A stretch of 64,000 nt of DNA from assembly GCA_000002435.2 (NCBI GenBank), contig CM018789.1; one strand, written 5' to 3'. The translations under genes were made by a program, and so were the position numbers. Positions 19,924 through 22,952 of this stretch are shown piece by piece (position 1 is the stretch's first letter; every line of letters begins with the position of its first letter). The notes beneath the pieces were generated by a model. The model searched no databases and was not told where the DNA came from. It saw nothing but the letters and a program-made list of their open reading frames with translations. The stretch comes from Giardia intestinalis (Eukaryota).

Positions 19924-20258
19924 GCGGTTACCTCGGCTAGTGCATCCATGTTATGAGTCTTGTGTAAACTCTAAGGACCGTCATGAAAAGCTTCTAACAG
20001 AGCCTTTAATTAAGGCGAATAGCTGATAGAGCGTTTGACATAGCTTTGAAGTATTAGTAGCAATCTCTGCTAGGCTAAAGAAAGAGCACAATTAAAGAGA
20101 CAGAAATAGATAGTCAGTGTTATCGTAGGCAGTGTATTGGACGCTGCCCCTCCCGGCTGTGGCGGCTGTCTACCGGGGGATAAAGGCGCTGGAGGCAGTC
20201 AGATCTGTGGCCCTCCGCTCCCCCAACCTGGAGCCCATATTCACCGAGTACGCCCTCC

Positions 20259-21665
20259 TCAGCGAGAGGAAGGATGACGGGTCCCCGGTGTCCCTGTAGA
20301 GGGGCTAGTGTGAACATGTTTTTCAAGGTAGTCGTCGATGCCCAGCGTCTCCCCGCTGGCGGTCAGCACACGCGTGTTCTCCCCGCAGACGGCCAGGTTG
20401 ATGTGCGGGTTGTGGAGCTCCGAGATCTGGCTCGAGCACGCCTGGGCAGGGTCGCCGGAGGAGGAGAGGGCGCCGTCCCAGAACTCGTTCCCCGGGAGCG
20501 CGTTCCCGTCCCACGCGTACGAGACCACCAGGAGCTTGCCTCTGTGCTCCGCCGGCAGGCTGTCGTGGGGGTTTCACCTGGAAAAGCGCACGCGGATGTG
20601 CTCGTAGGCCGCCCGGGGGAGGGCCTGGGCGGTGAACCACGCAAAGTCCAGGTCGCTTATGCCCGTGAGACGCCCTGCCAGCCTTGCGAGGCAGCGGGCG
20701 AAGGTCTCGAGGAAGACGGGCTCCTGGGCTGGAGACAGCGCCCAGACGCCCAGCCCGATCCCGACAACGTGAACGTAGGCCCTCGTGCCGGCGCGGGTGG
20801 CGCGGGAGTGTGCCTCCAGCAAAAGGGTCTCGAAGGAGATCGCCAGCCTTGCAGAGTACGCCTGCCTATTCAGATACAGGTCCCCGATCGGAAGGTACTT
20901 GCCGGGATCTGCGCTGCTCCTAACCCGGTCGTACAGCGGAAGGCACGGGAGACCGTAGAGCTCGGCCCACATCTGCCTCCACGAAGCGGCCGCCGTGGGC
21001 TCCCCGGAGGGCTCTCCATACCCGCGCGCCCTAACGTTCTGGTCCTTGGAGACGACGACCTCCTCCCACTCCATGACGCCCTCCTTCTCCAGGCGAGGGC
21101 CGATGAGCCCGATCACAACCCCGTGGCTCTGGACGGCCTCGCGAGACGGCGCCGGAACGCCCCTGTTCTCCCGGGACCTGTTGTTGATAAACACGCTGTA
21201 CGAGCTGACCGACAGGAGCGCAGAGAGCTTGATCTCGTCGTAGGTCAAGCGCTCTGGCAGCGAGCCCCCGCCCCAGCCGCGCCCCCGCGTGCCGTCCAGT
21301 AGCGTGAAGAAGTCCTCGCAGCCGTAGAAGGAGACCGCTCTTTTTGTGAGGAGGCGGTGGACAAGCGCGGTGACGGTCATGCCGCGATACAGCTCCCTCT
21401 CGGAAGGCGTTCCGTGGCGGGCCTTGTGGCGGAGGAAGCTGGCGTAGAGGCGCACCGCAGACTCGTGAAGCAGGGGGTACGCGGACTCGGCGAAGGCCGA
21501 CAGCTGCTGCGGAGAGGCCACGCCGCGCTGGAGAAGGTACTGGCAGCGGATAGTCTGGACCGGAAAGGGCACGGAAAACCGGGCGCTCCTGGACATGAGC
21601 GCCGCCAGCAGGGGGCATTGATCCGCCTGTGGCTGCTCTCCCAGCGGCTCTGCAGTGCTGATCAT
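20259..21665 (-). pseudogene. same hypothetical gene as a single ~468-codon frame interrupted by one in-frame TGA at 20574-20576
   Basis: ORF 20259..20528(-) is in the same frame (start coordinates congruent mod 3) as 20574..21713(-). Hand translation across the gap gives ...[40 protein letters not shown]..., with no further stops and protein-like sequence on both sides. Confidence 0.45.
20574..21665 (-). CDS. hypothetical protein in a GC-rich island; ORF continues in frame past a single TGA (see pseudogene entry)
   Basis: The track start (21713) is GTG; first ATG is 21665. Protein-like composition (W/Y/F, hydrophobic segments) with a Gly-rich loop HVVGIGLGVWALSPAQEP. The antisense + ORF 20274..21302 is R/G/P-rich junk. 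Confidence 0.5.
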   Translation of the reverse strand: MISTAEPLGEQPQADQCPLLAALMSRSARFSVPFPVQTIRCQYLLQRGVASPQQLSAFAESAYPLLHESAVRLYASFLRHKARHGTPSERELYRGMTVTALVHRLLTKRAVSFYGCEDFFTLLDGTRGRGWGGGSLPERLTYDEIKLSALLSVSSYSVFINNRSRENRGVPAPSREAVQSHGVVIGLIGPRLEKEGVMEWEEVVVSKDQNVRARGYGEPSGEPTAAASWRQMWAELYGLPCLPLYDRVRSSADPGKYLPIGDLYLNRQAYSARLAISFETLLLEAHSRATRAGTRAYVHVVGIGLGVWALSPAQEPVFLETFARCLARLAGRLTGISDLDFAWFTAQALPRAAYEHIRVRFSR

Positions 21666-22090
21666 TTTATCTTGGCGCTCACGGTCCCGAGGCGCCGAGC
21701 TGTGGGGCGCCACGACGGCAGAGGGGGTGCACAGCTCTGACCGCCTCTAGGGCACAGGGTTGCGGATAATAAAAGTTGTCTGTGGGGATTTACAGACAGA
21801 TACGCAAGGAACAGCAGACCCGGCTGCTGCGCCACGTGTGGTACCCAGCCTAGTACCCCGGGGGACGGTGCCCGGGTGCGCCCATCGCCGCCTGGCCACG
21901 GACTGCTCCAGCCACTACAGAGCCAGGCAAGCCAGGCATCTGGCCCTGCTGAGAGCGCGCTCGGCTGTCTTTGCAGGCCTCAGTGGGAGGGGCACGGGTG
22001 CCCGCTGCTCGTCGGCATTCCGGTCCCATTCTCGGGGAGCTGCCACAAGGATCGTCTTGACGCGTTTACTACCTAAGTACACAGCTGAGT

Positions 22091-22537
22091 CTACGCCTTG
22101 CCCCGGCAGAGGAACCACCAGCAAAGGAATCCGACGAGGCCCCCCACGACAATAACAGCGGCCACAGCGATGCCTGCGATGGCGCCTGTAGAAAGGCCGC
22201 TACTCTTGTTTGTGTTGGGAATCACGCACGCGTCGCCCTGGAGCGTGTAGCCATTGTCCTCATCGCACTTGCAGGCCTTCGTCGAGCCGACAACCGGGGC
22301 CTCTATTTCTCCTCCGTTTGCGTCGCAGGCGGCCTTGCAGCTCTTCTTGTTGACCGCGATGAACTTCGCGGGATCCGTACACGTGAGGCAGATCTTGTTC
22401 CCGCTGTTCGAGTCGCACGTGGCGCACCCAGCGGTTCCTAGATCGCCGCACGCGTTGTCAGATCTGCTCTTCTCTGCTGGCCGTATCGCCTCTGCCAGCT
22501 GCAGAACGAGGCTTGTGAAGATAAGCTTAGCAAACAT
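22091..22537 (-). CDS. mini variant-specific surface protein (VSP)-like cysteine-rich type I membrane protein
   Basis: Signal peptide [17 protein letters not shown] (start re-anchored to ATG 22537). Cys-rich ectodomain with CXXC motifs (CATC, CLTC). C-terminal [31 protein letters not shown] is the conserved Giardia VSP membrane anchor plus invariant CRGKA tail. Confidence 0.75.
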
Positions 22538-22952
22538 TGCGTCGGCAGTGCATGGAAGCCCGTGCAGTGAGAAGGCTTCCTGGTGTTCCCCTGTAACTGG
22601 AAGCAATATGACTGGCGCAGACACGCTTCGTTGTCCGCTTCCGGTCATAGAGAGGAGCAGGCGGATGCTCGACCTGTATCTCAGGATGCTGGTCTCTTGT
22701 GCACGGAAACCAAAGAGGATTTTCAGTACGTGGCAAGGGACCCTACTTTATCAGTGAAACATGGTTTCGGTGGCAGTTCGTCTTCTGCGGAAAGGCATAA
22801 GGACACACTTAGATAGTGAATGCATCCATTGCCATGCAAGCCCGGCTCCTGGCAGACATAGCCATTCTGGGTTTCTACTATAGTATTTTACTCAAGACCG
22901 GTGCAGTAAGGGGCCATTGTCCTTCATTAAATCTTTTCAAAATTGATTCCCC

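Follow-up and report, generated by a model that had tools for sequence, protein, structure and literature searches.

The question raised by this locus is how a short island of DNA with 64.5% guanine plus cytosine (GC) came to lie in a region with a background of 47.7 ± 3.1%, and what has become of the genes within it. The island occupies positions 20,140-22,650 of a 64,000-nt stretch of Giardia intestinalis contig CM018789.1 (assembly GCA_000002435.2, strain WB), which as a whole we call the window, and lies between a CMS1-like gene and the gene for Pus10. It contains the 3' relic of an ABC-transporter gene, GL50803_17273, which is a gene of the MavL-like ADP-ribosylhydrolase family, a GC-rich spacer and a 148-aa gene for a variant-specific surface protein (VSP). 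We think it probable that the core of the island is an old segmental duplicate which gene conversion has kept similar to its parent and enriched in GC, and that the daughter copy in WB has been broken by a stop codon.

The GC-rich island

In 500-nt segments across 20,140-22,650 the mean GC is 0.652 (range 0.598-0.680), as against a mean of 0.477 (standard deviation 0.031, maximum 0.574) for segments outside this island and a second one described at the end of this paper; the immediate flanks have 0.46 and 0.467. At 100-nt resolution GC climbs from 0.38 to 0.57-0.64 across 20,100-20,200 on the left and falls below 0.5 from about 22,700 on the right. Stop codons in the six frames occur at 0.018 per codon in the island and at 0.041-0.045 in the flanks, and this low density explains the many overlapping open reading frames (ORFs) on both strands. 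An earlier note made from the letters of the window alone, here the sequence-only reading, had remarked on the sharp rise in GC, the ORFs on both strands and the scarcity of stops, and all three are confirmed by the counts, GC being far from uniform. A scan of the whole window against Rfam gave zero matches, which rules out rDNA or other known RNA genes as the nature of the GC-rich islands.

A copy of the end of an ABC-transporter locus

The island core, at 20140-21763 (minus strand, GC 0.666), is on the evidence of the alignments a segmental duplicate of an ABC-transporter locus. The parts copied are the ABC 3' end and the MavL-like gene, with a further 98 nt on the upstream side of the latter. 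The MavL-like reading frame runs from 21665 to 20259 (minus strand) and has 468 codons, with GC 0.665 and GC at third codon positions (GC3) of 0.846. The ABC relic, at 20144-20299 on the plus strand, comprises the last 51 codons and the stop of a 957-aa gene and was recognised by tblastn, in which ABC proteins from three lineages matched it at 92-94% identity (E about 1e-22). Its convergent overlap with the end of the MavL-like gene is the same as at the parent locus, and in WB the relic is identical to assemblage A's own ABC tail. In assemblage B (BAH15c1), and in two further Giardia lineages represented by read-archive assemblies (L002 and L003), a MavL-like gene lies tail-to-tail with the 957-aa ABC transporter, near L7Ae and tubulin genes. 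The presence beside CMS1 of only a fragment of the ABC gene identifies the ABC locus as the parent and the CMS1 locus as the daughter.

The parent locus of DH (assemblage A2) carries an intact, unannotated MavL-like copy adjoining the ABC transporter, at 12834-14240 (minus strand) of L016 (AHGT01000009.1). Window 20140-21763 is 97.9% identical to this locus over 1624 nt (L016 12715-14338), and the DH daughter is 98.3% identical to the DH parent over 1745 nt. There is thus a second copy with shared boundaries, and, as discussed below, the paralogs are closer within lineages than the orthologs are between them. In assemblage B the unit is 1944 nt, with L012, which holds the daughter locus of GS_B, matching L005 at 97.4% and L011 at 98.5%. 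This shared unit accounts for the isolated contigs of about 1.9 kb in short-read assemblies; such assemblies collapse or break at the MavL-like repeat.

Homology to every other Giardia copy stops at window 20140. The length of ABC relic kept is 51 codons in WB, about 88-96 in DH and P15 (assemblage E) and 108 in assemblage B. WB is without 105-118 nt, the 5' part of the relic, that are kept in DH (L004 11574-11680) and P15 (L001 1296-1414), and in P15 decayed similarity continues further upstream of the relic; the junction on the CMS1 side of the unit is thus eroded specifically in WB. On the other side the spacer at 21764-22090 (GC 0.627), between the unit and the VSP gene, is common to WB and the DH daughter locus and absent at the parent locus, where GC past the unit is 0.41-0.47. 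We suggest that, in an ancestor common to assemblages A, E and B of G. duodenalis, a unit of 1.6-1.9 kb, made up of the last 90-108 ABC codons and the convergently overlapping gene for a MavL-like ADP-ribosylarginine hydrolase, was copied from the ABC locus to a site downstream of CMS1.

Distribution among Giardia lineages

The order CMS1(+), ABC relic(+), MavL-like gene(-) is found in WB (A1), DH (A2), P15 (E) and GS_B (B). The P15 contig breaks inside the MavL-like gene, and other assemblage B contigs stop a few bases into the ABC relic. In GS_B the daughter-locus MavL-like gene is intact and unannotated (L012, AHHH01000005.1, 12095-13519, minus strand).

Contigs of a low-GC lineage (runs ERR3333379, ERR3333381, SRR17450158 and SRR17450160) differ at this point. 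The MavL-like gene was not found beside CMS1 on them, and CMS1 is followed by about 1 kb of DNA of 30-35% GC and then by a fragment of an ankyrin-repeat gene (tails of L006-L009, for example L006 5962-7167), with neither MavL nor Pus10 after CMS1 on these tails. This marks a synteny break between lineages at the insertion point. In the low-GC lineage and in L003 (ERR3333378) the contig is unbroken from the ABC gene into the MavL-like gene, which points to a single copy in each. The two probably correspond to the C and D assemblages from dogs described by Kooyman et al. 2019 (PMC6939161), because their mutual identity of 77% resembles the published C-D distance (average nucleotide identity, ANI, 78.8) and because the run numbers are consecutive. 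In G. muris there is no MavL-like sequence in the 23-kb ABC locus, and the gene for DNA polymerase B starts 21 nt past the ABC gene.

From this distribution we regard the duplicate as old and common to A, E and B, and as an insertion relative to the deeper lineages. The sequence-only reading had seen in the interval a small accessory insertion. That holds relative to the low-GC (probably C or D) contigs and to G. muris, but a recent or strain-specific insertion it is not, the same duplicate lying in the same orientation beside CMS1 in A1, A2, E and B. The comparison of synteny among A, B and E that had been proposed as a check gives a divided answer, with conservation on the CMS1 side and content that is not identical among assemblages. 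The island beside CMS1 in assemblage B (L012 12,000-18,500) is 6.5 kb long with 64-73% GC, and beyond the MavL-like copy it has an unannotated 1252-aa ORF (L012 14048-17806, plus strand) and a 163-aa ORF, neither with a Pfam match. A tblastn search with these two and the VSP ORFs of assemblage B gave no match in the window, and Pus10 was not found within 10 kb of the assemblage B island on L012.

Concerted evolution of the two copies

Identity between paralogous MavL-like coding sequences is 98.0-98.9% within assemblage A and 97.1-98.7% within B, and between A and B it is 80.2-81.6%. A duplication that took place before A and B separated would predict paralogs diverged by at least the A-B distance; they are far closer than that, and hence have evolved in concert. 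The pattern is repeated on a smaller scale within A, where the DH daughter is 98.9% identical to the DH parent and 97.2% identical to the WB daughter. Both DH copies are derived at at least nine sites where WB and P15 agree, and between WB and DH the unit has 96.0% identity, as against 99.2% for the CMS1 flank. The ABC relic shows the ABC substitutions of its own lineage (LPLPAVAAVYRGIKALEAV in A and LPLSAVVAVYRGLKALEIV in B), the ABC tails of A and B being near-identical by direct translation. The simplest reading of this identity pattern would be repeated gene conversion between the two loci, such that ectopic conversion keeps the copies 97-99% identical in each lineage.

It could be argued instead that A/E and B each acquired the unit beside CMS1 in separate and recent duplications, and that the identity of the paralogs reflects youth and not conversion. 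The unit is 1745 nt in A and 1944 nt in B, the relics differ in length, the spacers between CMS1 and the relic cannot be aligned between A and B, and the far side differs, with a VSP gene and then Pus10 in A and the 1252-aa ORF in B. Against this, the neighbour, order and orientation are identical in both lineages, and differences at the boundary are what erosion produces, as WB has lost 105 nt of relic kept by DH and P15, and P15 has decayed similarity upstream. Furthermore A and E, which have an ANI of 85% (PMC6939161), both carry the insertion, and even so the two DH copies are 98.9% identical to each other, with derived sites in common that postdate the A1/A2 split, so that conversion is needed in any case. 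We consider independent duplications unlikely, and continue with a single duplication followed by conversion.

Why the unit is GC-rich

The MavL-like gene has high GC and GC3 in WB (0.665 and 0.846), the DH daughter (0.657 and 0.829), P15 (0.674 and 0.856) and assemblage B (BAH15c1 parent, 0.670 and 0.866). The values for L003 (0.484 and 0.502) and L002 (0.410 and 0.376) are those of the neighbouring genes, and such ambient composition in single-copy lineages indicates that high GC is not intrinsic to the MavL-like gene or to a donor.

The native ABC gene provides an internal control, as one boundary of the unit falls within it. In its last three 30-codon blocks, which are inside the unit, GC3 is 0.93, 0.73 and 0.80 in A and 0.87, 0.73 and 0.77 in B; upstream of the unit in the same gene it is 0.2-0.67. 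This step is not present in L002 or G. muris and is weak in L003. GC changes level at 12,600 and 14,300 in the DH parent locus, where the two ends of the unit are at 12,594 and 14,338. The untranslated ABC relic and the frame past the premature stop are as GC-rich as the rest of the unit. The GC3 excess is thus confined to the shared tract, and is absent or weak in lineages without a partner copy. The changes specific to the daughter copies are GC to AT in 9 of 9 cases in WB and 12 of 13 in DH (21 of 22 overall), and copy-specific changes of nearly one direction point to AT-biased mutation, which a fixation process favouring GC would counter.

We conclude that GC-biased gene conversion between the paralogs most likely built the GC content of the island in place. 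Biased conversion, working against the AT bias of mutation, would have lifted the tract to about 66% GC and a GC3 of about 85%, with the climb taking place at both loci and ending at the unit boundaries.

Another source of high GC would be selection for particular codons in a gene that is highly expressed. Giardia genes differ in codon usage and their GC3 varies with expression level, and in the MavL-like gene GC3, at 0.85, is far above GC at first and second positions. The first and second positions are raised too, however (0.64 and 0.51, as against 0.48-0.52 and 0.37-0.43), which shifts the amino-acid composition, and the ABC relic, the frame past the TGA and the spacer, which are untranslated or non-coding, are equally GC-rich. 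The GC3 step falls within one gene, the ABC gene, at the duplication boundary, and the ortholog in the single-copy lineages has ambient GC3 (0.38-0.50). Codon selection is in our view a very improbable cause.

The behaviour of the unit resembles that of dispersed duplicates evolving in concert under GC-biased conversion, a process documented across many eukaryotes both in rDNA and in duplicated genes (Escobar et al. 2011, as cited in PMC10123126). The resemblance lies in paralogs that are closer within a lineage, in a rise in GC and GC3 limited to the shared tract at both loci, and in new mutations that are AT-biased. The Giardia case differs in having two copies only, a unit of 1.6-1.9 kb and no observed meiosis, and in that one boundary lies inside a single-copy native gene and so serves as an internal control for the presumed GC bias. 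Duplication, concerted evolution, biased conversion, a nonsense pseudogene and a known enzyme family are all known biology in kind; what is moderately novel is the internal-control evidence for biased conversion in Giardia, together with the possible animal-to-protist transfer discussed below.

Several observations weigh against this account. The parent side in WB was seen through two proxies, its protein (P0133) and the DNA of the corresponding locus in DH, and the single copies of the low-GC lineage and L003 are read from unbroken short-read contigs. The unalignable spacer between CMS1 and the relic in A and B is a difficulty for a single event, although independent insertions at the same place are not parsimonious. 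The clean frame that continues past the stop, discussed below, bears on the presumed loss of function. With regard to composition, GC stays high past the unit in the window (spacer 0.627, VSP gene 0.597), and in assemblage B it is about 70% for 5 kb past the unit, over the 1252-aa ORF for which no paralog is known. Conversion between the two paralogs is thus not the whole story for the GC-rich extensions, and a regional effect may add to it or replace it. Finally, our literature search found no report of biased gene conversion for Giardia protein-coding genes.

If the account is correct, the compositional anomaly is explained without a GC-rich foreign donor, which calls for caution with composition-based claims of lateral transfer in Giardia. 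The GC3 step inside a native gene at a duplication boundary is an unusually clean natural experiment, and it points to recombination-driven GC enrichment, and to continuing ectopic recombination, in a parasite for which the occurrence of sex is a matter of debate.

The MavL-like gene and its premature stop

The sequence-only reading had reported a minus-strand gene of about 470 codons interrupted by a TGA, which it took to be hypothetical and possibly decaying. The frame and the stop are as it described, the 468 codons being interrupted once, by a TGA at 20574-20576 (codon 364), and the annotated WB product of GL50803_17273 ends there at 363 aa. The gene is not hypothetical, as it belongs to a recognisable enzyme family, that of the MavL-like ADP-ribosylhydrolases (PF16062, formerly DUF4804). 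Residues 22-349 match the profile with 327.4 bits (E 1.9e-97) and the piece past the TGA with 114.2 bits (E 8.9e-33), both above the curated cut-off of 27 bits, and the two halves together span profile positions 2-336 and 363-447 of 448. The closest solved structures are those of the Drosophila proteins CG3568 (PDB 8DMU, E 4.4e-87) and CG2909 (8DMT, E 1.3e-86).

Zhang et al. 2024 (PMC10951314) have shown that the MavL-like/DUF4804 class strips mono-ADP-ribose specifically from arginine, and have given as signature motifs a diphosphate loop, [V/I/L]xGxGxGx[F/W/Y], and a catalytic loop, WDxx[S/A]xPGN[D/E][F/Y][F/W/Y]. Both are present in the Giardia frame, the diphosphate-binding loop as VVGIGLGVW at aa 300-308 (20742-20768, minus strand), 5' of the stop, and the catalytic loop at aa 385-396 (20478-20513, minus strand), 3' of it. 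The TGA lies between the two, and the 363-aa WB product therefore has no catalytic loop, which the WB paralog and every other copy examined do encode. The two Drosophila enzymes align with the Giardia frame over their full length (E about 1e-87) and have identical diphosphate (HVVGIGLGVW) and catalytic loops. They differ in that the Giardia host is a diplomonad, in that Giardia copies are without some 10 residues that arthropods have before an ...IxxxFSxRNP segment, and in that the copy in the window is truncated before the catalytic loop. By homology the intact Giardia protein should hydrolyse mono-ADP-ribosyl-arginine. For the family in Giardia dN/dS (the ratio of nonsynonymous to synonymous substitution rates) is 0.14 when the two C/D-type lineages are compared and 0.31-0.37 in comparisons among A, B and E, values that show purifying selection.

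The stop arose by one C to T change, CGA (Arg) to TGA. The counterpart of codon 364 is CGA in the DH daughter, the DH parent and P15, and AGG or AGA in the copies of B and of C/D type, and the arginine is also conserved in CG2909 and CG3568. The TGA is confined to the WB daughter copy, and all eight other copies examined are intact. The gene is thus decaying, as had been proposed, in WB only, and WB itself retains an intact paralog, GL50803_0061593 (468 aa), which is on the same chromosome record, lay at 770,102-771,508 of the old scaffold CH991769, and is the gene that a 2013 transcriptome study (PMC3792122) lists as a transcribed and then unannotated 'gene repeat' of GL50803_17273. The exact 363-aa product is on record on 60 contigs, and the stop is therefore not an error of a single assembly.

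We have also considered that the TGA might be read through or recoded, or be an assembly artefact, leaving GL50803_17273 a full-length enzyme. The 104 codons past the TGA are free of stops and frameshifts and differ from the paralog at two residues. A clean downstream frame is nevertheless expected if the mutation is recent, if conversion continues and if, as in GC-rich sequence generally, stops are few, and the ancestral codon is an ordinary arginine codon. Giardia uses the standard genetic code, and no recoding signal was seen, although no search aimed at one was made. In addition to the exact truncated product on 60 contigs there are ten 363-aa variants. We regard readthrough or artefact as quite unlikely, and GL50803_17273 in WB as most likely an inactive pseudogene, in which the change from CGA to TGA would have removed the last 105 residues, the catalytic loop included. 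Removal of mono-ADP-ribose from arginine would then be carried by the intact, transcribed paralog. In WB GL50803_17273 is best treated as a truncated pseudogene copy, and the gene worth studying is GL50803_0061593.

The ten variants (P0136-P0145, from read-archive assemblies) mix daughter-type and parent-type residues in various ways and all end at the stop. They could be products of conversion or, equally, chimeric assemblies of copies that are 98% identical, and we have not used them as evidence.

Origin of the MavL-like gene

The closest relatives of the Giardia protein are insect enzymes (45-52% identity). In a search of 5.8 billion proteins the best 120 non-Giardia matches are insect or crustacean proteins or unnamed proteins from metagenomes and read assemblies (39-51% identity), and when 1.84 billion representatives were searched exhaustively without a profile, the highest-ranking named matches came from Anabrus, Glossina, Timema, Tribolium and crabs. 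Among bacteria a single relative is named, from a Babeliales bacterium, at 36% identity. Six giant-virus metagenome contigs (L019-L024) carry homologs that are 25-37% identical to the Giardia protein; the insect matches are closer, and a giant-virus donor was rejected. A DUF4804 protein is known from medusavirus virions (PMC6450098), and the family survey of PMC10951314 includes only bacteria, fungi and arthropods.

These relationships bear on another explanation for the GC-rich island, recent lateral transfer from a GC-rich bacterium with the GC as donor signature. The composition looks sharply foreign, and Legionella effectors were the first members of the family to be characterised, with others occurring in Babeliales and giant viruses. 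With arthropod or unnamed proteins making up the best 120 non-Giardia matches, however, and the sole named bacterial relative at 36% and giant viruses at 37% or less, a bacterial donor finds little place, and Legionella MavL was not detected in the PDB search at E < 0.01. The orthologs in two other Giardia lineages have the ambient GC of their hosts (0.41 and 0.48), the native ABC gene is GC-rich too but only inside the duplicated unit, and the island is common to A1, A2, E and B. Bacterial transfer is largely refuted by these data and we find it hardly credible. The sequence-only reading had posed the choice as one between bacterial and Giardia-specific origin, and the answer is neither, the closest relatives being insects.

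Legionella MavL and Larg1 are in the same Pfam family as the Giardia protein and follow the same motif logic. They differ in lying beyond phmmer detection at E < 0.01 and in being secreted effectors with ubiquitin or ANT as substrates, and there is no sign that ubiquitin is a target of the Giardia protein.

A neighbour-joining tree was made from 67 sequences and 444 columns (Babeliales root, vectorised Kimura distance, 200 bootstrap replicates). Decapods, a copepod and an ostracod branch below the insects, and Giardia falls among polyneopteran insects. Bootstrap support is 100% for monophyly of Giardia, 100% for Giardia with insects to the exclusion of decapods, 91% for Giardia inside the insect clade and 80% for a sister group that is polyneopteran only. 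This placement, and the absence of MavL from the G. muris locus, suggest that the G. duodenalis lineage acquired the gene from an insect-like source. We would put this close to an even chance, this being a distance tree with many unlabelled sequences and no explicit search of other diplomonads having been made. The complete series of events, in which the gene was captured from an insect (a polyneopteran-like one fits best) after the divergence of G. muris, came to lie beside the ABC transporter, was duplicated and was raised to a GC-rich island by biased conversion, we hold only tentatively, at a little under even odds. Were it true, there would be an internal-control demonstration of GC-biased ectopic conversion in Giardia, in which sex has never been observed, and conversion would be shown capable of raising an island to 66% GC where the chromosome has 47%. 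The Giardia gene in any case places a DUF4804 arginine-specific macrodomain hydrolase in a protist, and the tree points to a transfer from animal to protist, a rare direction. Our literature search found no paper tying DUF4804 to Giardia.

The VSP site and the flanking genes

The remainder of the island is a VSP site, which extends the GC-rich stretch to about 22.65 kb and in WB consists of a 148-aa stump and a second VSP relic. The 148-aa gene, at 22537-22091 on the minus strand, was recognised as VSP-like by the sequence-only reading, and this is upheld by its match to Pfam VSP (PF03302; 69.8 bits, E 2.6e-19, cut-off 31.4) and by its CRGKA tail. It shares with Giardia VSPs an N-terminus resembling a signal peptide, CXXC motifs, a C-terminal transmembrane segment and the VSP-type polyadenylation motif. 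It differs in having only 148 aa and two CXXC motifs, with no cysteine-rich body, and the match is limited to positions 283-397 of a 397-position profile. VSP remnant, or mini-VSP, is the most fitting name for it. The 2007 annotation started from an upstream ATG at 22648, giving a 185-aa VSP (XP_001706456.1); in the 2019 WB annotation the protein accessions are consecutive across the interval, which suggests that the mini-VSP has been dropped.

The DH ortholog has 511-548 aa (548 as annotated) and 17 CXXC motifs. WB and DH share the first 140 or so and the last 35 or so residues, with 87% nucleotide identity, and WB is without about 1.1 kb between them. In a blastn comparison the junction falls at 22214-22225 (minus strand), and the VSP body absent there is present at L004 8400-9503 in DH. 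The difference may be a loss in WB or a gain in DH. The flanks of the VSP gene have 97-99% identity between WB and DH, and the earlier statement that VSP loci are less conserved holds here. The site beside the unit is one of VSP turnover, and in that sense hypervariable. In the DH VSP gene (L004 7977-9623) there is also a 249-nt tandem duplication, with copies 99% identical, and the same module makes up most of the WB mini-VSP.

The pattern ACTYAGRTAGTRAAY, which we take to be the extended VSP-type polyadenylation motif, has two matches in the window, with none expected. One, ACTTAGGTAGTAAAC, at 22064-22078 (minus strand), is 13 nt past the mini-VSP stop codon. The other, ACTTAGATAGTGAAT, follows a second VSP 3'-end relic on the opposite strand, 22762-22821 (plus strand). 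This relic, which ends in ...WFRWQFVFCGKA*, is located in the interval from the mini-VSP to Pus10 and is not preceded by a VSP body. The sequence-only reading had allowed the island two minus-strand genes only; both are there, but it had missed this plus-strand relic and the plus-strand ABC relic.

The flanking genes are exact matches to WB (ATCC 50803) proteins, the CMS1-like gene (18865-19923, plus strand) to XP_001706459 and the Pus10 gene (22953-24683, plus strand) to XP_001706454, both on a chromosome record of 1,485,438 bp, and their Pfam assignments agree with the identities given them earlier.

A second GC-rich island

The window has a second GC-rich island at 46,000-53,500, with 56-63% GC. 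Within it lies an inverted repeat of 1669 nt whose arms, at 46673-48341 and 51148-52816, are perfectly (100%) complementary and are separated by a 2806-nt spacer. The centre of the island has only short, odd ORFs with no Pfam or Rfam match, and each arm encodes a 173-aa ankyrin-repeat ORF. This island may be another case of high GC accompanying duplicated sequence.

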